Shown here one piece after another: positions 13,779 to 53,382 of a DNA stretch of 64,000 nucleotides; the first letter of the stretch is position 1; each line of letters starts with the position of its first letter. A program made the position numbers and the translations under genes. Below the pieces are notes generated by a model. It searched no databases, was not told the origin of the DNA, and worked only from the letters and a program-made list of their open reading frames with translations. Origin of the DNA: a virus (lineage: Duplodnaviria; Heunggongvirae; Uroviricota; Caudoviricetes); the IMG/VR virus record IMGVR_UViG_2937142334_000003; one strand, 5' to 3'.

Positions 13779-15160
13779 CTTTATAAAAACTGTATTTCTT
13801 TTCAGCGGTAGTACATTAAACCATAGTCACAAAAAGAAAGCGGTAATAATTAATGATTAAAGGAATTAAATTGCGACTATATCCCAATCAAATGCAACAA
13901 AACCTGTTATTTCAAATGTTTGGTAATACCCGCTTTGTATGGAATCAGATGTTAGCAATGGCTAAGGCAAGGTACAAAAATAATCCAAGTTCTCGATTTA
14001 TAGATGAATATGGTATGAATTACTTTCTTAAACCGTTAAAAGAAGAATATCCATTCTTGAAAAACAGTGATTCTACTAGTTTGCAAGTGACAAACCATAA
14101 CTTAGCTCAGGCCTTTAAAATGTTATTTCAACATAAAGGTGGTTATCCTCATTTTAAGAGTCGCAAGATCAGTAAGCAATCATATACGGGCCGCAATGGG
14201 TGTCGTGTAGAGGCAAAAAGGCGAATAAAATTGCCTAAAATTGGGAGCATACGTACTAGTAAGACTACGCATCTCATTGGTTGTAACATCAAGCGCTACA
14301 CCGTCACTTATGAACCGACTGGTCGTTACTATGTATCATTTCAGGTCGAAACTGAAATTAATCAGTTACCGAAAACAGGAGATGCAGTTGGTATAGATGT
14401 TGGGCTTGCGAACTTGGCGATTACTTCTGATGGTCAAAAATATGGTACTTTCGATGCCTGTTGGGTAGAAAAACAAGCACAAATATGGCAATCAAAGTTT
14501 AGTAAGCGTAAATATCGTGCGATGGTGGCAGTACGTCACTGGAATCATAATCATAAAGCCTTTCAGATGGAATTAAGTGACTATCAGAATTGGCAACGTG
14601 CGAGAATTCAAAAATCACGCTATCAAAAGAAAATAGTAGATAAACGAAAAGATTATTTGCATAAGGTAACAACAGATTTAGTTAAAAAATACGATGTGAT
14701 TGTCATTGAGGATTTGAAAATCAAGAATCTTCAAAAGAATCATCATTTGGCTAAATCAATTGCCAATGCGAGTTGGTATCAATTTAGGACCATGTTGGAA
14801 TATAAATGTGCGTGGTATGGAAAGAAGCTAATAACTGTTAAGCCAAACTATACTAGTCAAATTTGTAGTCAATGTGGCTATCACAGTGGTAAGAAACCAC
14901 TAGAAATTCGTGAGTGGATGTGTCCAAATTGTGGCACCCATCACGACCGAGATATTAATGCAGCAGTTAATATCTTGAAACAAGGATTAAAGCTAATTGG
15001 CTAGGGACTAGCCGTGGTAAAAGAATGAAGTTCTGTAAGTTAGGTATTCAGAATACTGATATAACATCCTAAATACTACTTCGTGTTCCCAGAAACATAC
15101 CGACTTTAGTTGATATGTAGTTCACAAAATCCGCATTTGTTATAAGAGATATGGAGGAAT
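13779..15160 (+). mobile_element. IS200/IS605-family tnpB-only element (IS1341-like). Boundaries approximate.
   Basis: Contains the tnpB gene. An 18-bp perfect IR (13592..13609 vs 13780..13797) brackets the upstream terminator region. tnpA absent. Confidence 0.5.
13853..15004 (+). CDS. tnpB: IS605-family TnpB (OrfB) RNA-guided nuclease-like protein
   Basis: N-terminal [28 protein letters not shown]. RuvC-like [22 protein letters not shown]. Zn finger CSQCGY..CPNCG. Confidence 0.85.
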
Positions 15161-21289: not shown

Positions 21290-22634
21290 AAATGTCGTGA
21301 TAAATATAAGATGGTGCCCGATAAATCTTTGAGAGGGGGTGATACAAACGATAAGAACAGAAAAAGTTAGATTATATCCTAATAGCATAATGAAACAACA
21401 GTTAAAGGATCTTTGTGACTATCGTCGCTATTGTTGGAACAAGGGTTTGGCGCTATGGAACGATATGTATGATGAGTCTGTCTTGCTAGGCAATAAGAAA
21501 TTACGACCCAACGAAAGGAAGGTTCGTAATGAACTTGTAACTAACAAACAAGATTGGCAATATCTATATTCGTCTCGTTGCCTACAATTAGCGATTTCTG
21601 ATCTTGGAAAGGCTTGGGAAAACTTTTTTAATAAAGCGCAATCCGATTGGGGAATACCCAAATTCAAATCTAAAAAAGCTCCTAAACAAGGCTTCAAAAC
21701 TGATCGAGCAAAGATTGTTAATGGGAAGCTGCGATTGGATAAGCCTAGAGGAATTAAAGAATGGTCGGATATTAAGATTGCAGGTGTAAAATCTCTAGAT
21801 GGTGACTTAAAGGTTGTATCAATTTACCGTGAGAACGGCAAATATTGGGCATCACTGCCTTTTGAAGTGACGATTAAGCATAAGCCTAAAACGGAGCAGA
21901 AGACAGCAATTGATGTCAATGTTGGACACTTTAATACTCCAGGTGGTCAAATTACCATTATTCCAAAGCGATTAGATAGGCTTTATAAACGGATTAAGCA
22001 TTACCAACGCCAATTAGCTAAGAAACGAATTGTTAATGGTAAACAAGCATACCAATCAAATAATTACGTTAAAACGAGAGCCAAGTTACAACGTGATTAT
22101 CGTAAAGTAACTAATATTCAGCGTGATATTATTCAAAAGTTTACTACTAAGCTAGTCGATGATTACGATCAAATCGTAATTGAAGATCTGGATGTTAAAC
22201 AAATGCAAATGAGTCATGTCGCTTCTAAGGGTTTACAACGTTCGTTGTTTGGTTACTTTCGCCAAGTTCTTACATACAAATGCGAGTGGTATGGCAAAGA
22301 ATTGATCCTCGCCAATCAGCATTATCCAAGTACGCAACGCTGTTCACAGTGTGGGTACATTAAAACTGGTGAGGATAAGATTACTCTAGCTGGGAATCAG
22401 AAATATCATACTAAGCATAACGAGTACATATGTTATAAGTGTGATGCAGTAATGGATAGAGATGAAAATGCTGTAATGAATTTATTACAGTTAGCATAAA
22501 TAAGAATAAATATTAACGGGGTGGGCTACATCCTTAAACTATCAGAGTTGGTCAATGTCATTACCCTCTAGTTAGGATATGGGAATACCGATGTTGACGG
22601 TAGTAAATAAAATTAAGAAAGGAAAAGCTATATA
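21290..22634 (+). mobile_element. IS607-family tnpB-only element, copy A. Conserved right end 22518..22634.
   Basis: Left-end motif taaatctttgagagggggtga. Right end nearly identical to copies at 30883..30999 and 59826..59935 (reverse complement). Confidence 0.6.
21339..22499 (+). CDS. tnpB: IS607-family TnpB
   Basis: VRLYPN..LCDYRRYCWN. AIDVNVGHFN, IVIEDLDVKQM, CSQCGY...CYKCDAVMDRDENAVMNL. Confidence 0.85.
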   Translation: MIQTIRTEKVRLYPNSIMKQQLKDLCDYRRYCWNKGLALWNDMYDESVLLGNKKLRPNERKVRNELVTNKQDWQYLYSSRCLQLAISDLGKAWENFFNKAQSDWGIPKFKSKKAPKQGFKTDRAKIVNGKLRLDKPRGIKEWSDIKIAGVKSLDGDLKVVSIYRENGKYWASLPFEVTIKHKPKTEQKTAIDVNVGHFNTPGGQITIIPKRLDRLYKRIKHYQRQLAKKRIVNGKQAYQSNNYVKTRAKLQRDYRKVTNIQRDIIQKFTTKLVDDYDQIVIEDLDVKQMQMSHVASKGLQRSLFGYFRQVLTYKCEWYGKELILANQHYPSTQRCSQCGYIKTGEDKITLAGNQKYHTKHNEYICYKCDAVMDRDENAVMNLLQLA

Positions 22635-29654: not shown

Positions 29655-30999
29655 AAATGGTAGAACATTTGGGCGTATCTATTAAATCTTTGAAAGGTGG
29701 TGAGATAAATGATCCGAACAGAAAAAGTTAGGTTGTATCCCAATACGACAATGAAACAAGCCATAGATGCCTTGTGTGACTATCGACGTTATTGCTGGAA
29801 CGAAGGCTTGGCGTTGTGGAATGATATGTATGAAGAGTCTAAGTTGATGGACAATAAGAAGTTACGACCAAATGAGTACAAGGTCCGTAATGAACTTGTT
29901 GCTAATAAACAAGATTGGCAATATCTATATTCGTCTCGTTGCCTACAATTAGCGATTTCTGATCTTGGAAAGGCTTGGGAAAACTTTTTCGACAAAGCCC
30001 AACCAGATTGGAGTATGCCAAAATTTAAGTCTAAGAAGACTCCAAGACAAGGTTTTAAGACTGACCGAGCCAAGATTGTTAATGGTAAACTCCGATTAGA
30101 TAAGCCAAGAGGGGTTAGTGGCTGGACAGATATTAGGATCTCGGGCGCTAAGCCCCTAGATGGCGAATTAAAAGTCATATCGATCTATCGTGAGAATGGC
30201 AAATACTGGGCGTCATTACCTTTTGAAACATCGGTTGATACAAAGTCTAAAACAGGTCAAAGTACAGCTATCGATGTTAACGTGGGCCACTTTAACTATC
30301 CCGATGGTCAGATTAATGTTTTGCCAGTAAAATTACAAAAGCTCTACAAGCGGATCAAGCATTACCAACGCCAATTGGCCCGTAAAAGGATTACGAATGG
30401 CAAAATGGCAACGCAAAGCAATAATTACATGAAAACGAGAGCCAAGTTGCAGCGCGATTATCGCAAGGTTGTCAACATTCAATCCGATCTTTTACAAAAG
30501 TTCACGACTAAGTTAGTCACCAATTACGACCAGATCGTTATCGAAGATCTTGCCGTCAAGAAAATGATGATGGATCACGTAGCATCGAAGGGTATGCAGC
30601 GGTCGTTGTTTAGCAAGTTTCGTCAAATTCTAACCTATAAGTGTGATTGGTACGGTAAGAAACTAATTCTGGCAAATAGATGTTATCCAAGTACACAGCG
30701 CTGTTCGCAATGTGGACATCTCAAGACTGGCGTGGACAAGATTACTCTAGCCGGCAACCAAAAACATCGTACTAAACACAATGAGTATATCTGTTACGAA
30801 TGTGGTTTGGTTATGGATAGAGATGAAAATGCCGTCATGAACTTATTACGGTTGGCGGCGGCGTAAAAAGAAAAATGCTTTTGGGGTGGGCTACACCCTT
30901 AGGCCATCAGAGTTGGTCAATGTCATTACCCTCTTGTTGGGCTATGGGAATACCGATGTTGACGGTGGTAAATAAAATTAAGAAAGGAAAAGCTATATA
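29655..30999 (+). mobile_element. IS607-family tnpB-only element, copy B
   Basis: Same left-end and right-end motifs as copy A. A ~90-bp stretch (29910..29990) is identical to 21551..21630. Confidence 0.6.
29709..30866 (+). CDS. tnpB: IS607-family TnpB
   Basis: Homolog of 21339..22499. Confidence 0.85.
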   Translation: MIRTEKVRLYPNTTMKQAIDALCDYRRYCWNEGLALWNDMYEESKLMDNKKLRPNEYKVRNELVANKQDWQYLYSSRCLQLAISDLGKAWENFFDKAQPDWSMPKFKSKKTPRQGFKTDRAKIVNGKLRLDKPRGVSGWTDIRISGAKPLDGELKVISIYRENGKYWASLPFETSVDTKSKTGQSTAIDVNVGHFNYPDGQINVLPVKLQKLYKRIKHYQRQLARKRITNGKMATQSNNYMKTRAKLQRDYRKVVNIQSDLLQKFTTKLVTNYDQIVIEDLAVKKMMMDHVASKGMQRSLFSKFRQILTYKCDWYGKKLILANRCYPSTQRCSQCGHLKTGVDKITLAGNQKHRTKHNEYICYECGLVMDRDENAVMNLLRLAAA

Positions 31000-32566: not shown

Positions 32567-33337
32567 ATGGGAACTAGTGTAGAAAAGATTGCGTGGTATA
32601 GCGTATTCAAGCCAAGTTGGTATGTTGAACAGATGAAGGGCTGGACAACTCGTAGCTATTGTTTGTTACTTATTGGAATTGGGTTGATTGTAGGTATGAC
32701 AGTTGGTGGCGGGATATTTAATCCTGTTACAATGACAACAATGCTTGCGGGGGTACTAGGATTCACATGCACCTTGTCAATTTCTAATTCAAAGCCACTA
32801 AATGGAATTCTAGGTCTAATAAGTGCCTTGATTTATATCTTTGTAGCGATTAATGCAAAAAATTATAATGATGTATTATTACAAACAATTTATATCTTAG
32901 CACTAGATTTACCGGTATTACTTTCTCCAAGCTGGGCTAAAGATGTTGATAAGAAAGTGCGTTTCCTCGGAGAACAAGGACATGGTTTACGCAATTGGAC
33001 TCTAACTGTTCTATTGTTTGTTGTTTTAACGCTTGTGTTGTACTATTCAGATACGCATTGGTTTATCAGTCCTCGCCCATGGGTTGATAGTATCGCTGCT
33101 TCAGTGGGAATTACAGGAGCCGTGCTAACTACATTCCGCTTTAGCGAAAGCTATTTCTGCTGGTTGGCGCAAGGATTACTTTCAGTAACATTATGGGGAA
33201 TCACAGCGGTACAAGGAGATGCTAATTTTGTACTTTTTGTTACGTACCTATTGTACTTATCAAATGACTTTTTAGCATTTTTTGATAAAGATATTGCGTG
33301 GTTCCATCACGAAAAACACCAACTAACAACTAAATAG
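32567..33337 (+). CDS. pnuC: PnuC-family nicotinamide riboside transporter, putative
   Basis: Multi-TM protein. GFTCTLSISNSKPLNGILGLISALIYIFVAINAKNYNDVLLQ resembles the PnuC core. Start at the ATG after agagggaatt. Confidence 0.5.
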   Translation: MGTSVEKIAWYSVFKPSWYVEQMKGWTTRSYCLLLIGIGLIVGMTVGGGIFNPVTMTTMLAGVLGFTCTLSISNSKPLNGILGLISALIYIFVAINAKNYNDVLLQTIYILALDLPVLLSPSWAKDVDKKVRFLGEQGHGLRNWTLTVLLFVVLTLVLYYSDTHWFISPRPWVDSIAASVGITGAVLTTFRFSESYFCWLAQGLLSVTLWGITAVQGDANFVLFVTYLLYLSNDFLAFFDKDIAWFHHEKHQLTTK

Positions 33338-33679
33338 ACAGAAAAACCGCCTAGTCCCGAAAAACTAGACGGTAGATAAAAACACTAACTCATGCTATAA
33401 TATAACCGTATCAAAGAATTATATTACTTTAATAGTTGGGTTGATAAGTTAGCTGGCAAGTGTTCCTATTCTGGTGTATTGCCGTACACCACCAACCAAA
33501 CACTCGACAAAAAGGCTTGCGACTTAATCACACCCTTTAAACGGTTTTGGTGTATTGGGTCTCGACCAATGCACTTTTTAATTATAACAGATAAAATGGC
33601 TATTCTGACAAAAGAGTTAGGATGGTCATTTTTGTTTAAGGAGCGATAATATGACAAGATATATTAAGTGGGTGAACTA

Positions 33680-33943
33680 ATGATTAAGGTAAAAATTTAT
33701 ACAAAAGAGCATTGTCCTGCTTGTATGATGACTAAGAAGTTGTTTAATAAGCTGGACGTAGATTATAAAGAGGTAACAGTTCTTCAAGATAGTCCAATGT
33801 TAGAAGTTTTACGTGAACAGGGGTGGCACAGTTTTCCCGTAGTAGAATGGCTGGACGAAGAAGGCGTAGGAGACGCTTGGTCAGGATTTAACCCAGATAA
33901 TATTAAGGAGGTAGCTAGTTATTATGGACAAAGCATTGATTAA
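33680..33943 (+). CDS. NrdH/glutaredoxin-like redoxin
   Basis: MIKVKIYTKEHCPACMMTKKLF has a CPAC active-site motif. Confidence 0.6.
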   Translation: MIKVKIYTKEHCPACMMTKKLFNKLDVDYKEVTVLQDSPMLEVLREQGWHSFPVVEWLDEEGVGDAWSGFNPDNIKEVASYYGQSID

Positions 33944-34166
33944 ATTGTTTGAAAAAGAAATGTTTAACAAAGAGAATAGTGAAGATGGGTTTCGTAACTT
34001 CGTTCTTGATTACTATAAGAAACATTCGAAAGATACGTTTGAATATCCTAAGGATCGTTACGAACTTTTAACAAAGGGCGATCCTAAAGCGCAATGGACT
34101 ATGGAAGATATTGTTGTATATTACCTCTCTAATAGCGATCAAAAAGGTAAAGTAACTTTTATTTAA
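33924..34166 (+). CDS. hypothetical protein
   Basis: ORF track. Confidence 0.45.
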   Translation: MDKALIKLFEKEMFNKENSEDGFRNFVLDYYKKHSKDTFEYPKDRYELLTKGDPKAQWTMEDIVVYYLSNSDQKGKVTFI

Positions 34167-34207
34167 ACACAACAAAAATATTTTATATTAAATTATAGGT
34201 AAATCAA

Positions 34208-34236
34208 TTGACAAATATTTTTGTTTGGGTTATTAT
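34208..34236 (+). promoter_or_regulatory. sigma70-like promoter TTGACA - 17 - TATTAT reading into the tRNA region
   Basis: Hexamers at 34208..34213 and 34231..34236. Preceded by the conserved CACAACAAAAATA motif. Confidence 0.55.
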
Positions 34237-34331
34237 AGATATCGTTGATGAGGAGCAACGCAGTTGCGACCCGTTAATAAATCACACAGATCAAATGATC
34301 AATTCAACATTTCAGGATTATTCCTGATTAT

Positions 34332-34404
34332 GGGCTTATAGTTTAACTGGAGAGAACAGTAATCTTCTAAATTACCAACCTTGGTTCGAGTCCAAGTGAG
34401 CCCA
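34332..34404 (+). tRNA. tRNA-Arg (anticodon TCT)
   Basis: Manual cloverleaf: acceptor gggctta/tgagccc, D-arm gttt/gaac, anticodon stem gtaat/attac with loop cttctaa, T-arm cttgg-ttcgagt-ccaag. 73 nt. Confidence 0.8.
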
Positions 34405-34432
34405 TCAACTCTTATGAAAGGGAGGCGGATAC

Positions 34433-35125
34433 ATGTTTGTCCCTGTTAGCGATTATGAGGGATTATATAAGATTAACGAAATTGGAGAAGTTAGATCTGT
34501 GCATAGAATATATAAAGATTCTATCGGCAGAGCAAGAACGGTCAATGAACACGTCGTTAAACCTTGCGTCAATAAATCTGGATATAAAACGCTTGGACTA
34601 TATAAGGATGGAAAAAGAACTACAGAATATGTTCATAAGTTGGTATATGCCTCTTTTAATCATTTAACTCATGAAGAAATAGGTGAAATTGATATCGATC
34701 ATATCGATGGAAATAAACTAAATTGTCATTTAGATAATTTGGAAGCTGTTTCTCACAAAGAGAATATTCATAGAAAAATATGCCGAAAAAATGGACTAAC
34801 AATTCAAAAAGGTAATTCTTATGCCGAAAATTTTCATTATTTTGGACAACAAAATAAATTCTTTAAAATAAGATGTAGAATTTGCGGTAAGCCATTGTTA
34901 AAAAGTGAAAGCGGACTTTGTAGAATTTGTTATGATTCTTACGTAAGGAGCAGCAAAAAGCCTAATAAGCAACAGTTTCTCATTCATCTTCGTAAAACAC
35001 TGGATATTCACGACCTGAGTAAAATATATGACGTAGAAGAGCACAGTGTTAGAAGATGGTTAAGAGAATACGGCATACCAAGCCTCACTGAGCTCAAAAA
35101 GAATCCTGAATTAATTGAAGCGTAA
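34433..35125 (+). CDS. HNH homing endonuclease with NUMOD4-like N-terminus
   Basis: GLYKINEIGEVRSV and IDHIDGNKLNCHLDNLEAVSHKEN. Confidence 0.75.
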   Translation: MFVPVSDYEGLYKINEIGEVRSVHRIYKDSIGRARTVNEHVVKPCVNKSGYKTLGLYKDGKRTTEYVHKLVYASFNHLTHEEIGEIDIDHIDGNKLNCHLDNLEAVSHKENIHRKICRKNGLTIQKGNSYAENFHYFGQQNKFFKIRCRICGKPLLKSESGLCRICYDSYVRSSKKPNKQQFLIHLRKTLDIHDLSKIYDVEEHSVRRWLREYGIPSLTELKKNPELIEA

Positions 35126-35510
35126 ATTGCGAAGAGTGGAAAGGCAATACGTACATTTTGGAAGTACACACTCCCTATATATCTTTTAAATTCATAATAC
35201 AAACACACCTTTCTAATTTTTAATCATCCATGTTTGTCTTTTACAGAGGTTCGACTCCTCTGCTTCGCATAGGGCAGAAATGCCCGAAATTATTAAACAT
35301 TTGCGTGCTGTGTTTAATAATCAAAAATTGTTGATTCATAAATTTTCATTTCTTTTTATCTACTTTTGTCAGCACACTGCGGTTCGATTCCGTTTTGTGT
35401 TATTCCCAGCTAAGTGGTTGGGCTGGGGAACTCCTTTCATGGTTAAACACCTCCGAAATATGAAAGATTAGTTAGTCAGATAAGATATGTGTGGTCTTAT
35501 CTTGATATGG

Positions 35511-35580
35511 TTCGGTATAGCTCAGTTGGTAGAGCAACATTGTACGGTGTAGATATGTGGTTCGATTCCCATTGCCGAAA
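35511..35580 (+). pseudogene. tRNA-like element (degenerate): acceptor ttcggta/tgccgaa and consensus D-arm TAGCTCAGTTGGTAGAGC, but no foldable anticodon or T stem
   Basis: Manual folding fails for nt 27-65. Length 70 nt. Confidence 0.35.
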
Positions 35581-35735
35581 TTCCTAGTAATAGGTTGTTC
35601 CAAATGACGGAAAACGTTTGGAATGTAAAAACACCTAACGTATGTTCAATAGGTTATATTTTCCACATGCCTTTACCTTTACATTTTTCAATTCGATCTA
35701 ATAACGTGTTTGCGCTGGCATGGCACGTTATTAAT

Positions 35736-35818
35736 GCCTAGATAGCGAAGTCTGGTCAAACGCGACGGTCTCCAAAACCGTTCCTTCGGGTTCGGGGGTT
35801 CAAATCCCTCTCTAGGCA
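35736..35818 (+). tRNA. class-II-shaped tRNA (12-nt variable arm, A73) carrying anticodon CCA. Identity ambiguous: Leu/Tyr-like body with a Trp anticodon.
   Basis: Acceptor gcctaga/tctaggc, 3-bp D-stem with 13-nt loop, anticodon stem acggt/accgt with loop ctccaaa, variable arm tccttcgggttc, T-arm ggggg-ttcaaat-ccctc. 83 nt. Confidence 0.55.
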
Positions 35819-35843
35819 TTGATTAAGAAGGAAAGGAGTAAGA

Positions 35844-36419
35844 GTGCATATGCCACTTAATGATGACTTAATTAGAGATATCCTGAAAAATGTTGCTATA
35901 CATGGTGTAAAGGGGAATAACCTTACTAGCATCATAGCTGAACTTCCTGGATATTCAGAAAAGGCAATTTTGGAAACCCTTAACTGGATGGAAATAAATG
36001 ATTTCATTGGTAAAACACAATTAGAAAACTACATTCTATCTTATTATGGACGGTATGTGTTTGGAGTTATCGCCGATGATTCAGTTTGGGAATACGCAAA
36101 AAGCGAGTACACCAAACGAAATTGCAAAACATGGTCTTGGAGTTCTAAGGTTAGAATTGCCACTCAATACCTGAAAAAGTATGATCCTGAGGCTCCTGTA
36201 AAATTTGACTATTTGCCATATAAGAATGAGGAAAAAGGCACCTTATATTACTACAAAGATAAAGAGGGCAATAACATTCCTGCCTTTGGTGATTATAAGG
36301 GCGCATCGATTATGATTGACGACAAGAATGTTGATCGAGTTTTAGAGTTCTTTCCACAAGCTAAGAATAATTTATATGTGGTATATCAAGGTGTGGAATT
36401 TAAGATTAATAATGTCTAA
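35844..36419 (+). CDS. hypothetical protein
   Basis: ORF track. RBS ggaaaggag. Confidence 0.55.
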   Translation: MHMPLNDDLIRDILKNVAIHGVKGNNLTSIIAELPGYSEKAILETLNWMEINDFIGKTQLENYILSYYGRYVFGVIADDSVWEYAKSEYTKRNCKTWSWSSKVRIATQYLKKYDPEAPVKFDYLPYKNEEKGTLYYYKDKEGNNIPAFGDYKGASIMIDDKNVDRVLEFFPQAKNNLYVVYQGVEFKINNV

Positions 36420-36778
36420 CCATTTATAGCTACTGAGATTGCGGTAGATAAGATAGATTGAAGCGTGACTTTTGTAGCTGATAATAAAATTTTTTGAGTT
36501 TTCTTCCAAACTAGTGGATTCTTGATCTTATCAAGATAATCTTTGCCCGTATCTGTAATACTTCCTTCGGCAATCCACATTGGGGTTTTCCCAGCATAGT
36601 GAATCTTATTAGTAACGAGTTTCCCTTTATTCATAATCGCAATGGTATCTAACAATTCACGTCTGGATTTATTATGAAGGTCAGCAAACTTAAACAATTC
36701 CTTTTCATTGACACCAGCAAAGTCTGCTTCTTCATATAAAAATAGTAAATTTCGTACAAATTTTGGATCGAATTTCAT
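36416..36778 (-). CDS. hypothetical protein
   Basis: ORF track. Confidence 0.45.
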   Translation of the reverse strand: MKFDPKFVRNLLFLYEEADFAGVNEKELFKFADLHNKSRRELLDTIAIMNKGKLVTNKIHYAGKTPMWIAEGSITDTGKDYLDKIKNPLVWKKTQKILLSATKVTLQSILSTAISVAING

Positions 36779-36824
36779 GTCTACATCATTCCTTTCTTAT
36801 GATATTTTATCAAAGAAACAATTT

Positions 36825-36896
36825 ACACGAATAATTCAATTGGCAGAATGGTAGCCTCCAAAACTACTCATCTAGGTTCAAGTCCTAGTTCGTGTG
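36825..36896 (+). tRNA. tRNA-Trp (anticodon CCA)
   Basis: Acceptor acacgaa/ttcgtgt, D-arm attc/gaat, anticodon loop ctccaaa, T-arm ctagg-ttcaagt-cctag. 72 nt. Confidence 0.7.
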
Positions 36897-37391
36897 TCGG
36901 GCGATCTGGTAATCTACACCCTGAATAATATAAACGCAAGATTACAAGTCATGCTAGTTATTGGCGGAAGCCTTTGAAAAATAAAAAAGCAGTCTAGAAA
37001 AAGTTCTGACCACTAGTGGGAAGAATGACAGTTTATGCCTTCTGTTAGTAAAATGCTTATTTTATAAAGTTTTTGCGTCTTTAAATTGCTGTTGTAACAG
37101 CGATAAGATAATAAACTTATTTATATAATCTGATTACGGCTCACGTAGGGCTTCGAAATACAGCATAATTACCCACCTCGGTGTTCAAGAGAGCACGTGC
37201 TCAGAGAATGCAAAAGAAATAGGTATGACAGATAAGAAAGAGGCTGTCTTGTTAAAGATTAATCAGATTAACGTGGAGCTTGACTCCTTAATGGCTTGGG
37301 GCGAATTCGTCCTCGTGTTGATGTCTTTTGCTGACAAGTTTCAACCGTCACGTAAAAGCGGAAATGAAACGATACATGTATTATGTTTGGA

Positions 37392-37973: not shown

Positions 37974-38064
37974 TGCGAAGTAGCTTCAAAACAGGGAAAG
38001 CGTTGGGAATGCGCATGAGAAAAACAAGACCCAGAGATCGCAGGTTCGAATCCTGTCTTCGCAG
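37974..38064 (+). pseudogene. tRNA-like element with ~20-nt expansion in the anticodon region (acceptor tgcgaag/cttcgca, good D and T arms)
   Basis: 91 nt. Stem ttggg/cccag encloses a 22-nt loop containing the palindrome atgcgcat. Confidence 0.4.
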
Positions 38065-38667: not shown

Positions 38668-38924
38668 TCAGGTTCTCTTAAATGTTCTCCTTAAACACAA
38701 GAAAAGAGCAGATTAATTAACTAAAAAGCTACCCCCTAGCTTGAGGCTTGCGCGACTGATACTAGCAAAGAGACAGCCTCGCCTGAGTGGAAAAAGTTAA
38801 GGAAGTTGTATCAGAACACCCTTAATACCAATGATGTTAGTTGCCGAAAGCATAGTTGCAAATATGTGATTGGATTAAATGCTCATAGTTAGTTTGGTTC
38901 GATGTTTGAGAACTAACATTTTAT

Positions 38925-38999
38925 ACTCCAATAGCTCAGCCTGGTCAGAGCGCACAACTTATAATTGTGATGTCGATGGTTCAAGTCCATCTTGGAGTA
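38925..38999 (+). tRNA. tRNA-Ile (anticodon TAT, reads AUA)
   Basis: Acceptor actccaa/ttggagt, D-arm gctc/gagc, anticodon stem cacaa/ttgtg with loop cttataa, T-arm gatgg-ttcaagt-ccatc. 75 nt. ORF 38879..39193 spurious. Confidence 0.8.
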
Positions 39000-50286: not shown

Positions 50287-53200
50287 TTATTTTTTAAGTA
50301 AACCTACAGTCGCAGTAAATCTATCTTGTTGGGATATATCATCTCCAAAAAGGCCATATAGTCTATCAACAAGTTGATCATTATTTTTGTGTGCATCATT
50401 TAATTTTTCTGGTAAAGCAGAATTAGATGCATACATTTGATATATAGAAATATCATTTTTCATAAGGTTTTCGCGTTCATTGATTATATTCTTTGCAGAC
50501 TCTTCCAGAAGTAATTTGTCTTTATCAGACAACTCAGGAAGTGGGAATTTATAATAAACAGTTTCCGTAGAATACCTAATGCCATTTCCAAGACTTCCAC
50601 TAATAATTTGAGTCCAGGCATAATGTAATCTGCTTTGCAAAATAGCAAATAACCAAAGTGGAGCGTCAAAAATCTGGTAAACTTGATCACTAACTATTAC
50701 GTTATCCGATATATAACGCATGGGTACAATCATTCTCTTACTGGTTGTATTTCTAGGTATTGCAAGGCTAGATTTATGTCTGTATCTATCTCTCTTATAA
50801 GTTCCAGGTGTTTTAGAAAGTTTTCTATCTTCTTTTGATACGGTCTGTCTAAAGATTGATATATTCTTTAGTCTGTCCTGAATGAAAATTGGTAATTTAT
50901 TAATATCGCTATCCTTCGGAATATACATTTCATAACTTTGAGATGTATTTTGCTTAAGTAGCTCTTGACCTCCGTAAAATGGATGAAAATATTTTGCGCT
51001 TTCAGGATCACTATCGATTAGCTCGTCATATTTAGACTTTGTAATTCTGTAATTCCCATCATCAAGGAAGACACTTCCAAGTTCGGCTAACGGTAATTCT
51101 GTATTCTTTGACTGTTTAGATAAGTTAATCCAGTCACCCTCAACTAAATATTCATTAATATTTGATACAAGACGAATATTTTGGTTTTCATCAACCAATC
51201 TTTTATTCTGATGCCCGAGTAGAGCTCCTTTTTTATTGAAACCTATGATAACTACGAATACCTGTGCACCGTTATTATCCCATCTGAATGTCTGGTATGC
51301 AAAATCTATTTCTAGTTTGTGTCCCGTTAGGAGTTTCTCAAGATTTAGTGCCTGCACACCTTGCGCTATAGAATTAGAGGACACAAAGCCAACTTTTAGA
51401 TTTCTATTGAATTCGGTCGCTTTTGCAGCTTTCATAAACCAACCAAACACGAAATCCATATTATTTAATCTTTTTAACGCAGATTTTGGGAAATAAGTTG
51501 ACAGACGTGGATGTTCGAATTTACCCTTCTTCGTTTTCCCGCCTTTAAATGGTGGGTTTCCTAAAATATAATTTAAGGAACTTAAATCAACTACATTATT
51601 CCAGTTTAGTTTTAGTGCATCACCCTGAATAATATTCGCTGATTTATGGAGTGGTATACGGACAAAAGGAACACCAGATACGACAGTTTCAGAAAATTCC
51701 TGGTTCATAATATGATCCATCATCCACATACCTGCTCTAGCTATATCTATAGGGTATCGATTGTATTTGGCCTCACCTTTTTCTGATTCATATGGAATAC
51801 CGAGTTCAATACCACTAAACTGATTGACTTCAACCCCAATAAGCGGCTGCCAGTTCCGTGAGTTTTTATCTGAAGATAGATTGCCATATCGTGTAAACCC
51901 AAGTGTAGTAACATCGTTTAGGCCAAAACCGATTTCTGCATTACTTTGGTTGGTGCTAATCAATATTTCTGATACAACTTGATGTTCTAATCTTCTTAAT
52001 TCCCTATAGGCAAGGATTAAAAAGTTTCCAGAACCACAAGCAGGATCAAGAAAAGTAAGTGTTGATAATTTTCTCTTAAATGCGAGTAATTTGTTCGTAA
52101 CGCTTGCTTTCGATTTCTTTATTTTCTCGAATTCTTCTCTCAGATCATCCATAAATAGGTTGTTTATTACCTTCAAGATATTTTCTTCGCTTGTGTAATG
52201 CGCCCCTATTTCATGTCTAGTTCCTTTATCCATTGCACCTTCATACATTGATCCGAAAACTATTGGGTTCACCTTAGACCAATCATCTTTAGATATATTA
52301 TAAAGGTCATCAACTAATTGATCATCCAATGGTTTTACATAAAGGCTAAAGGATTCCTTTTCAGCACCTTCGAAGAGTCCTCCGTCGATATAAGAAACTC
52401 CGGGAGCCAATCTAGCTCTTAATTCGTTATCTTCAGTGTCAACTGCACCGAAAAAGCGCTTGAGTTTTTCTAAACGTAAAGGCGCCTCTATCTCTTTCAG
52501 CCCATGTAAAAAGTCAGTGAAGATATTTTGCTTGTTAAATATTTGAGTGTCATCAGCGAACATTAGGAACGCTAATCGAACAATCATTTTGTCTGCTTGT
52601 TCCTGCGTAAAGCCTAAAGAAATAAGCTTACTATGGATTTGTCCCATTTTTGTTGCTTTATCAGCAGAGATTCTTAAACCTAATTCACGCTTCTTTGTGA
52701 CCTCTTTTTTCAGATCTACAATAGGAGAGATCTCTTTATCGTCTAGTTTTGGAATGATATTTTGAGGCGCTAATAGATAAAATAACTTTTCTAAATTATC
52801 ACCAGAAGTCAGTTTCTCTAAGTTTATAGAAAAATAGTCTAGTCGGTTTCCAAGATAAACTCTTAATTCAACAAAGTTAGTTACGATTTCAAAACGTTGT
52901 TGATTATCTGGATTGCGAAAACGGGAGGCGTAATCAAAAGCTTGATCTATTCCTTTACCACGATCATGCTGGCCTCTTTTACCAAAGCCATAAGTAGAAT
53001 CTTCTACTTCAATAAAACCAACGGGATATATATCGTTAGACTTGTTCGAATCTAGATCCTCCACATTGAATAATCCTAAAATACCATCTGGAATTTTTCC
53101 CGTCTGATCACTATATTCTGTAGCAAACGTTACTGTATCTGATTTTCTAGAGCTTGAATCGGTTTTTGTATAGCCCAGTATATCCACAAATAGATTGCGT

Positions 53201-53382
53201 AAAAAGTCAGGTCGGTGTTGATTTTCCTTCCATTTATAAACCTCATCACCATGAAAAGAGTTAACTAGACGCTTGGCTGCTTCATACTTTTCTTTTGTTA
53301 TCAGTGCCTTGGTATTTTGGGCAGCCATATCGTTTCGTAAATCAACGTCCGAAATGATAGTTCCATGATTAATTATACTCAT
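50287..53382 (-). CDS. gamma-class N6-adenine DNA methyltransferase fused to large N- and C-terminal domains. Candidate Type IIL/IIG (MmeI-like) restriction-modification enzyme or BREX PglX-like methyltransferase.
   Basis: FLDPACGSGNFL (motif I) and GNPPF (motif IV) in the middle of a 1031-aa protein. Possible PD..EVE nuclease-like motif near the N-terminus. Confidence 0.6.
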   Translation of the reverse strand: MSIINHGTIISDVDLRNDMAAQNTKALITKEKYEAAKRLVNSFHGDEVYKWKENQHRPDFLRNLFVDILGYTKTDSSSRKSDTVTFATEYSDQTGKIPDGILGLFNVEDLDSNKSNDIYPVGFIEVEDSTYGFGKRGQHDRGKGIDQAFDYASRFRNPDNQQRFEIVTNFVELRVYLGNRLDYFSINLEKLTSGDNLEKLFYLLAPQNIIPKLDDKEISPIVDLKKEVTKKRELGLRISADKATKMGQIHSKLISLGFTQEQADKMIVRLAFLMFADDTQIFNKQNIFTDFLHGLKEIEAPLRLEKLKRFFGAVDTEDNELRARLAPGVSYIDGGLFEGAEKESFSLYVKPLDDQLVDDLYNISKDDWSKVNPIVFGSMYEGAMDKGTRHEIGAHYTSEENILKVINNLFMDDLREEFEKIKKSKASVTNKLLAFKRKLSTLTFLDPACGSGNFLILAYRELRRLEHQVVSEILISTNQSNAEIGFGLNDVTTLGFTRYGNLSSDKNSRNWQPLIGVEVNQFSGIELGIPYESEKGEAKYNRYPIDIARAGMWMMDHIMNQEFSETVVSGVPFVRIPLHKSANIIQGDALKLNWNNVVDLSSLNYILGNPPFKGGKTKKGKFEHPRLSTYFPKSALKRLNNMDFVFGWFMKAAKATEFNRNLKVGFVSSNSIAQGVQALNLEKLLTGHKLEIDFAYQTFRWDNNGAQVFVVIIGFNKKGALLGHQNKRLVDENQNIRLVSNINEYLVEGDWINLSKQSKNTELPLAELGSVFLDDGNYRITKSKYDELIDSDPESAKYFHPFYGGQELLKQNTSQSYEMYIPKDSDINKLPIFIQDRLKNISIFRQTVSKEDRKLSKTPGTYKRDRYRHKSSLAIPRNTTSKRMIVPMRYISDNVIVSDQVYQIFDAPLWLFAILQSRLHYAWTQIISGSLGNGIRYSTETVYYKFPLPELSDKDKLLLEESAKNIINERENLMKNDISIYQMYASNSALPEKLNDAHKNNDQLVDRLYGLFGDDISQQDRFTATVGLLKK

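Follow-up and report, generated by a model that had tools for sequence, protein, structure and literature searches.

Alloacceptor tRNA remolding, also described as tRNA gene recruitment, is best documented in metazoan mitochondria (PMC4783518), and tryptophan (Trp) identity has been engineered in the laboratory by converting tRNA-fMet or tRNA-Gln with CCA or opal anticodons together with G73 (PMC9976931, refs 90-91). Here, we describe a class-II (long variable arm) tRNA gene on a stretch of 64,000 nucleotides (nt) of viral DNA (IMG/VR record IMGVR_UViG_2937142334_000003), referred to below in its full length as the window, which is related to large elements of Limosilactobacillus reuteri. The gene presents the Trp anticodon CCA on a body of the tyrosine (Tyr) type, and it is very probably a hybrid of two alleles that occupy the same locus among these elements. 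Remolding, mostly in mitochondria, and class-II tRNAs with foreign anticodons are known already, and what appears to be new, as judged from the sequences compared, is a natural Tyr-to-Trp allelic series. To our knowledge, tRNA-Trp is always of class I, and the literature searched yielded no account of a class-II tRNA bearing a set of Trp identity elements or of a switch from Tyr to Trp.

Direct reading of the gene gave the layout GCCTAGA-TA-GCG-AAGTCTGGTCAAA-CGC-G-ACGGT-CTCCAAA-ACCGT-TCCTTCGGGTTC-GGGGG-TTCAAAT-CCCTC-TCTAGGC-A. The acceptor stem (GCCTAGA/TCTAGGC) has 7 bp and is followed by U8 and A9, the 3-bp D-stem (GCG/CGC) encloses a D-loop of 13 nt with the sequence AAGTCTGGTCAAA, and the 5-bp anticodon stem (ACGGT/ACCGT) has no mismatch and closes the loop CUCCAAA, which possesses U33 and A37. 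The variable arm is followed by the T-arm GGGGG-TTCAAAT-CCCTC, and the discriminator is A73 at position 35818. The original prediction had described an 83-nt tRNA with a 3-bp D-stem, a 12-nt variable arm, A73, and the anticodon CCA, and all of these features were borne out by direct reading, by ARAGORN, and by Rfam. ARAGORN, which had been proposed there as a check, called a tRNA-Trp(cca) at 35735-35819, and the Rfam tRNA covariance model matched 35736-35818 exactly (59.6 bits; E value, 2.8e-11).

The unconstrained minimum-free-energy fold was exactly the annotated cloverleaf (-26.5 kcal/mol), and the acceptor/T geometry was the normal 7/5. No sign of a pseudogene was detected: 20 of 20 stem pairs were intact, and U33, A37, G18G19, and the T-loop TTCAAAT were all kept. 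When 14 distinct homologous sequences were compared, comprising all allele forms together with host and phage Tyr genes, the stem pairs were standard in 280 of 280 cells (20 pairs × 14 sequences). Fifteen of the 20 pairs had changed on both sides, and pairing dropped to 31-62% when the 3′ partners were slid. The 1-72 pair was found as A-U, G·U, or G-C and never as a mismatch. The feature lies far beyond chance, as 11 further contigs carry the same gene and none of the 20 stem pairs is non-standard in any of the 14 homologs. A pseudogene, or a standard tRNA-Trp with a misfolded variable region, had been named with the original prediction as the alternative to it and was rejected, as no stem is broken and the long variable arm is genuine.

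The ancestry of the body was analyzed by a sensitive blastn search of the 83-nt gene against 50,697 phage records. All of the best full-length matches that could be called by ARAGORN were tRNA-Tyr(gta) genes, which came from Listeria, Enterococcus, and Staphylococcus contigs, an Arcanobacterium phage, and many Streptomyces phages. In the alignment to tRNA-Tyr(gta), the D-arm, anticodon stem, variable arm, and A73 lined up, and only positions 34 and 35 departed (GTA to CCA). Over nt 8-60, the gene was identical at 49 of 53 positions to Lactobacillaceae-type tRNA-Tyr(GTA) genes located at the ends of prophage-sized contigs (L017, L019, L023, and L026), and the four mismatches to the L017-type gene consisted of the two anticodon bases and two D-loop bases. 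The host of these L017-type genes is weakly indicated as Lactobacillaceae by an adjacent prophage with a 76% match to an L. reuteri phage.

Global comparison of whole tRNAs gave 61-69 matches to Tyr, 48-56 to serine (Ser), and 44-46 to Trp genes. The gene was closer to tRNA-Tyr (66-69 matches) than to Trp tRNAs with the same anticodon (44-46), which is the relation that marks a remolded tRNA. Because the best matches are tRNA-Tyr(gta) and the global ranking places Tyr above Ser and Trp, the body is, by these comparisons, that of a tRNA-Tyr and not of a leucine (Leu) or Ser tRNA. A Leu- or Ser-type body was accordingly rejected: all callable nearest relatives are Tyr genes, and identity to Ser tRNAs is low. 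Of the Leu/Tyr-type body proposed originally, the Tyr half therefore stands, whereas the Leu half does not agree with the native Tyr D-arm and variable arm. An any-anticodon scan of IMG/VR for this body type returned GTA and CCA only, and no copy with a stop-codon (suppressor) anticodon was found.

The gene shares the long variable arm, the 3-bp D-stem, and the Tyr-type D-loop and core sequence with tRNA-Tyr, and, in the window allele only among the CCA alleles, also A73 and G1-C72. Its anticodon is CCA rather than GUA, hence it is not a tRNA-Tyr by decoding, and it is without G34 and U35, the determinants for tyrosyl-tRNA synthetase (TyrRS). With tRNA-Trp, it shares the anticodon CCA. It has A73 in place of G73, G1-C72 and A5-U68 in place of A1-U72 and G5-C68 (A5-U68 is also found in the CCA-allele relatives), and a 12-nt arm in place of the short variable loop of class-I architecture.

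The locus lies downstream of a tRNA-Arg(tct) gene and is occupied by several alternative alleles among related elements. The CCA allele was identified in 11 other contigs (L007-L010 from IMG/VR; L038, which represents the same element as L010; L044, L047, L051, L056, and L060 from metagenomes; L063 and L064 from finished plasmids). Over nt 2-71, these alleles were identical or nearly so to the window, with the exceptions of D-loop positions 20/20a and G7 in L047. All 11 carry G73; ten have A1-U72, and L047 is a variant with G1·U72 and G7·U66. A73, which had been taken in the original prediction as a class-II hallmark, belongs in the window copy to the 3′ end of the Tyr allele described below. 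In nine of ten elements, the class-II CCA gene is the sole tRNA-Trp of the array.

The Tyr allele was found at the same locus in L061 and L062, where it is a class-II tRNA-Tyr with the anticodon GTA, G1-C72, and A73. It differs from the CCA allele in the D-loop, anticodon stem, and variable arm, while the T-arm is the same and the acceptor stem is nearly identical. Downstream of it are a trailer that begins with TTGATTAAGAAGG, two DUF2513 open reading frames (ORFs), and a canonical tRNA-Trp. L061 is also the closest overall relative of the window in the comparison (96% over 32843-36900). The finished plasmid L063 has a complete CCA allele (A1-U72, G73), to which the Tyr-allele cassette is attached a few bases past the tRNA. 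In the window, this 1.08-kb cassette (35817-36896) replaces the approximately 240-nt spacer of plain CCA-allele elements, and homology with the cassette-less relatives resumes at 36897, directly after G73 of the canonical tRNA-Trp. Tyr-allele elements carry the canonical tRNA-Trp, and cassette-less elements rely on the class-II CCA gene. This distribution agrees with a remolding from Tyr to Trp. Pattern scans were performed in two designs over IMG/VR viral contigs and in one design over 185,579 species genomes (one genome each) and Joint Genome Institute (JGI) metagenome contigs; no class-II CCA gene was found in them outside the L. reuteri element lineage, and the other pattern matches were chance hits without a tRNA call.

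Bacterial Trp identity is determined by G73 (major), C34-C35-A36, and A1-U72 (minor), and in B. subtilis also by G5-C68 and the pairs 2-71 to 4-69 (PMC9976931). Bacterial Tyr identity depends on A73 and U35, both of which are critical, on G1-C72, and on a long-arm tRNA; G73 acts as an antideterminant against TyrRS and leucyl-tRNA synthetase (LeuRS), and C2-G71 acts as one against seryl-tRNA synthetase (SerRS) (PMC9976931). In the T. thermophilus complex, TyrRS is base-specific for G34 and Psi35 (PMC1934993). An E. coli tRNA-Trp with A73 and G1-C72 has been reported to be inactive for tryptophanyl-tRNA synthetase (TrpRS) (PMC2965240, citing Himeno 1991). The CCA allele of the lineage has lost all four sequence-readable Tyr determinants (G34, U35, A73, and G1-C72) and acquired the three main Trp determinants (CCA, G73, and A1-U72), with C2-G71 retained.

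Because the changed positions are those that switch recognition from bacterial TyrRS to TrpRS, the lineage G73 form, in spite of the long variable arm, is most likely the functional tRNA-Trp of the element. It would have arisen when a tRNA-Tyr of the element family was remolded into a UGG reader through the changes GUA to CCA, A73 to G73, and G1-C72 to A1-U72. This is the pattern to be expected of Tyr-to-Trp alloacceptor remolding and not of a mistranslating tRNA. Remolding implies a new function together with loss of the ancestral gene, and the lineage form has the Trp set and is the sole Trp tRNA of the L. reuteri plasmid p53608_1, for which a single tRNA-Trp and zero tRNA-Tyr have been reported (PMC4667477); in the window allele, the determinants conflict. 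The functions offered originally, a missense or recoding tRNA or an unusual Trp isoacceptor, were broad enough to bracket the probable answer, but a CCA anticodon on a Tyr body does not by itself make a missense tRNA that inserts Tyr, because bacterial TyrRS, unlike LeuRS and SerRS, reads positions 34 and 35.

The window copy is the sole CCA-allele copy without G73 (one of 12). Its leader hairpin and nt 1-71 are those of the CCA allele, and the last diagnostic CCA-allele base is A69 (35814), where the Tyr allele has G. The first diagnostic Tyr-allele bases are C72 (35817) and A73 (35818), and from C72 on, through the trailer and into ORF191, no base differs between the window and the Tyr allele of L062. 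Around the 3′ end of the tRNA, the window differs from L063 only at nt 1, 72, 73, +3, and +20, and has the Tyr-allele base each time. These observations point, with a high degree of confidence, to a Tyr-derived hybrid allele with a Trp anticodon and a Tyr acceptor end. The most likely origin of the hybrid is an exchange between the two alleles, by homologous recombination or gene conversion, in the T-arm and 3′ acceptor strand that both have in common. The polymorphic HNH endonuclease gene at 34433-35125 would be a plausible promoter of gene conversion at the locus.

Several points weigh against this account. G1 pairs perfectly with C72, to which A1 would be mismatched, and because of this perfect pair selection could still be maintaining the window copy as a working tRNA and not as a passive by-product. 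All five differences between the window and L063 are transitions, and therefore they could have come from point mutation, or from selection favoring an acceptor end of the Tyr type, instead of recombination. The window type could also be an intermediate rather than a derived recombinant, and the CCA/A73/G1-C72 allele is known from one sequence only. As G1 is already present in L047, a simple crossover from an L047-like parent could also explain G1. In addition, the identity rules applied here derive from E. coli, B. subtilis, and T. thermophilus and not from L. reuteri.

With regard to function, we tentatively favor a hybrid that is poorly charged by both TrpRS and TyrRS and that is redundant beside the canonical tRNA-Trp. 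It is predicted to be a poor TrpRS substrate because it is without G73 and A1-U72, and a poor TyrRS substrate because it is without G34 and U35. Decoding of UGG would be covered by the canonical tRNA-Trp that arrives with the same cassette, and the hybrid would then add little to decoding.

It is possible, though rather unlikely, that the window copy is a working but weaker Trp isoacceptor, so that recognition of CCA suffices despite A73 and G1-C72 and the element has two tRNA-Trp genes. In every studied system, the anticodon ranks among the major TrpRS determinants (PMC9976931), all stems are intact, and apart from A73 and G1-C72 the molecule does not differ from the G73 form, which is the sole tRNA-Trp in most related elements. 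L063 also demonstrates that a class-II CCA tRNA and a canonical tRNA-Trp can coexist. However, G73 is the major determinant at the acceptor end, and the window copy stands alone among the CCA-allele copies in lacking it; the combination of A73 and G1-C72 that it carries is the one reported to inactivate E. coli tRNA-Trp (PMC2965240).

We consider it improbable that the copy is a natural missense tRNA, charged by TyrRS through the Tyr acceptor end and variable arm and inserting Tyr at UGG. Position 34 of tRNA-Tyr can be changed without loss of Tyr charging, as amber suppressors demonstrate, which counts in favor of such a role. So does the presence of A73, G1-C72, and the long variable arm, bacterial TyrRS features (PMC9976931) that are combined in the window CCA allele only. 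Class-II tRNAs charged through their body also exist, namely, the nematode nev-tRNAs (PMC3333845) and the bacterial allo-tRNAs (PMC7609411), but these precedents depend on LeuRS and SerRS ignoring the anticodon, and TyrRS does not ignore it. U35 is critical, and G34 and Psi35 are read base-specifically (PMC9976931, PMC1934993), whereas both positions are C in the window copy. Proteome-wide substitution of Tyr for Trp would probably be costly as well. A bolder combination, in which the lineage form is the first natural class-II tRNA of Trp identity and the window allele has a dual or ambiguous identity, being charged by TyrRS through its restored Tyr acceptor end and causing Trp-to-Tyr mistranslation at UGG, appears slightly less probable again. 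If it were true, living steps of a tRNA identity switch would be seen in the Tyr, Trp, G1·U72, and hybrid alleles.

A non-decoding role is very unlikely. The copy would serve as a Tyr-shaped decoy, or as a resistant substitute, against tRNA-targeting nucleases of host defense or of competing elements. Phage tRNAs are known to counter tRNA-cleaving defenses, including a retron effector that cleaves tRNA-Tyr (PMC11555353, PMC10264068), and the surrounding array is full of non-canonical tRNA-like genes. Nevertheless, no nuclease or defense context was tied to the class-II tRNA gene, and in the lineage form the anticodon switched together with nt 73 and the 1-72 pair, as expected from a change of synthetase and not from nuclease evasion. 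Charging by LeuRS or SerRS through the long variable arm is hardly conceivable: the class-II shape and A73, the LeuRS discriminator, would fit it, but the gene has retained the exact D-arm and the short variable arm (2 bp, UUCG) of native tRNA-Tyr, which neither LeuRS nor SerRS charges in cells, and for SerRS, C2-G71 is a published antideterminant (PMC9976931) and identity to Ser tRNAs is low. Equally implausible is an assembly or sequencing artifact that joined two co-occurring alleles, as might be suspected because this exact allele was seen in a single sequence. At the junction, the two alleles have just a few bases in common, much less than an assembler would need to switch paths, and in the finished plasmid L063 the CCA-allele tRNA is connected to this cassette in nearly the same way, with the joint lying a few bases more downstream.

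The features of the locus are listed in Table 1.

Table 1. Features of the class-II tRNA locus in the window
Feature	Position	Strand	Description
tRNA-Arg(tct)	34331..34406	+	Conserved upstream neighbor; marks the locus in all related elements
HNH/NUMOD4 homing-endonuclease gene	34433..35125	+	Between tRNA-Arg and the class-II tRNA, 0.6 kb upstream of the latter
Leader hairpin	35699..35733	+	CCA-allele type; -17 kcal/mol; ends 2 nt before the tRNA 5′ end
Class-II (long variable arm) tRNA	35736..35818	+	tRNA-Tyr-type body, anticodon CCA, G1-C72, A73; very probably a hybrid allele
Anticodon CCA	35772..35774	+	35772 C>G and 35773 C>T vs L061; the Tyr allele here has GTA, so positions 34 and 35 both differ
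Variable arm	35782..35793	+	12 nt, TCCTTCGGGTTC; CC/GG stem (2 bp) and UUCG loop; same as in Firmicutes tRNA-Tyr genes
Allele junction	35815..35818	+	Between A69 (35814) and C72 (35817)/A73 (35818)
Trailer and two DUF2513-family ORFs	35819..36824		ORFs at 35844-36419 (+) and 36416-36778 (-); main part of the 1.08-kb cassette
Canonical class-I tRNA-Trp(CCA)	36825..36896	+	A1-U72, G5-C68, G73; right-hand cassette end; called by ARAGORN and Rfam

The HNH/NUMOD4 gene was present only in the window and in L061, where it is 99.4% identical, and was cleanly absent from the other relatives. The leader of the Tyr allele has a different sequence and an equivalent hairpin (-14.5 kcal/mol). As the structure is kept between alleles while the sequence differs, the leader hairpin suggests a processing or termination signal. 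A promoter and terminator scan around the class-II tRNA gene performed no better than on shuffled sequence and was uninformative. The normal tRNA-Trp(CCA) that had been noted 1 kb downstream was confirmed as a class-I tRNA by ARAGORN and Rfam. It has a C31·A39 mismatch at the base of the anticodon stem, and it differs from the copy in L061 at many sites, with near-identical flanks.

The window matched L. reuteri "plasmids" at 95-97.5% identity, the records being filed as plasmids: p53608_1 of strain ATCC 53608 (LN906635; 138,515 bp), which is also present in IMG/VR as a viral contig, and the related plasmids NZ_CP065541 (132.6 kb) and NZ_CP102426 (128.8 kb). No close DNA relatives were found among deposited phages. 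On the basis of nucleotide identity, the window is assigned to a family of approximately 117-138-kb L. reuteri megaplasmid/phage-like elements. p53608_1 has been described as a RepA/ParA megaplasmid with an incomplete prophage (PMC4667477). The replication module of the window is phage-like, with a DnaB-type helicase, a Dda/exonuclease V-type helicase, an exonuclease, and a DNA polymerase III beta-like protein. Other ORFs encode nucleotide-salvage enzymes, PnuC, a glutaredoxin, integrases, and the HNH/NUMOD4 homing endonuclease. None of the large ORFs within the window, which covers part of the roughly 130-kb element, encoded a TrpRS, a TyrRS, or any other aminoacyl-tRNA synthetase, or tRNA-processing enzymes. 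Copies of IS605 OrfB/TnpB (with a Cas12f1-like TNB domain) and transposase ORFs are scattered over the window (13853-15004, 21339-22499, 29709-30866, and 60168-61118), and an MmeI-type restriction-modification enzyme of 1031 aa is encoded at 50287-53382 (-).

The array also contains other tRNA-like genes and many tRNA remnants. Within 600 nt upstream of the class-II tRNA, two orphan T-arm/3′-acceptor fragments were found (~35245-35269 and ~35375-35403), together with a tRNA-like gene at 35511-35580 (+; Rfam, 48.4 bits) whose anticodon arm pairs poorly and which is kept in all relatives. In a 91-nt tRNA-like sequence at 37974-38064 (+; Rfam tRNA, 40.4 bits; no ARAGORN call), approximately 22 nt are enclosed by the anticodon stem, possibly as an intron-like insert or a degenerate loop. 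The tRNA-Ile(tat) gene is 78 nt long in the window (38924-39001) and 96 nt long in L047 (3472-3567), L056 (2879-2974), and L063 (6400-6495), and these long copies suggest an insertion or intron-like element. A 60-nt tRNA-like sequence at 40379-40438 (+; Rfam tRNA, 43.2 bits; no ARAGORN call) possesses acceptor, D, and T arms and approximately 10 nt at the place of the anticodon arm.

The element encodes its own transfer-messenger RNA (tmRNA) at 39659-40036 (+; Rfam, 74.6 bits) with the tag peptide ANNHRVTALAA, and this gene is conserved in related L. reuteri elements. Just upstream of it, a tRNA-like gene at 39523-39596 (+; Rfam, 33.7 bits) received no ARAGORN call in the window. Its counterparts in L038 (5255-5328), L063 (6910-6985), and L060 (8362-8437) were identified, and ARAGORN called Thr(ggt), Phe(aaa), or Cys(aca) in relatives. 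The flanks and the acceptor stem (AACAC[A/G]TTAG...TGTGTTA) are kept in this family, the body and anticodon loop are drastically different, and several of the loops are without U33. By this comparison, it looks like a hypervariable or non-canonical tRNA-like family.

The locus presents a class-II tRNA-Tyr on a mobile element that has apparently been converted to Trp identity through the textbook determinants, namely, positions 34, 35, and 73 and the 1-72 pair. The coexisting Tyr, converted, G1·U72 intermediate, and hybrid alleles form a natural and directly testable series for two questions: how an amino-acid identity can change without a toxic ambiguous state, and how far TrpRS tolerates a long variable arm. 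The series also bears on annotation. The lineage form has been annotated simply as "tRNA-Trp", and nothing was said about its body (PMC4667477); ARAGORN, which labels by anticodon, names the hybrid in the same manner.

Compared with alloacceptor remolding, the tRNA of the L. reuteri elements is similar in that it has a new anticodon and in that most elements no longer have the ancestral Tyr function at this locus. Unlike the mitochondrial cases, it resides on a bacterial megaplasmid/phage-like element, it crosses the divide from class II to class I, and the switch includes nt 73 and the 1-72 pair besides the anticodon. The ancestral, switched, and hybrid alleles are, moreover, all still present in the element population.

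The nev-tRNAs (PMC3333845) and allo-tRNAs (PMC7609411) resemble the present gene in combining a long variable arm with an anticodon foreign to Leu, Ser, and Tyr. They are of the Leu or Ser type and are charged through their body as LeuRS and SerRS ignore the anticodon, whereas the body here is Tyr and TyrRS reads the anticodon (PMC1934993). The allo-tRNAs have an 8/4 or 9/3 acceptor/T geometry, in contrast to 7/5 in the window gene, which does not belong to these mistranslating types by its body or its geometry. The lineage form also differs from them in having an identity set that matches its new anticodon, and it is therefore predicted to be non-mistranslating.

The engineered Trp switches define Trp identity by the same few positions, that is, the anticodon, nt 73, and the 1-72 pair, but they were made in the laboratory on class-I bodies, and the tRNA of the L. 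reuteri elements is natural and of class II. Finally, the locus is similar to phage tRNA arrays with homing-endonuclease mosaicism in having a tRNA cluster, an HNH gene, presence/absence cassettes, and alleles that are mosaic between relatives. It differs from them in the position of the junction, which in the window lies inside the tRNA gene itself and parts the anticodon from the discriminator.
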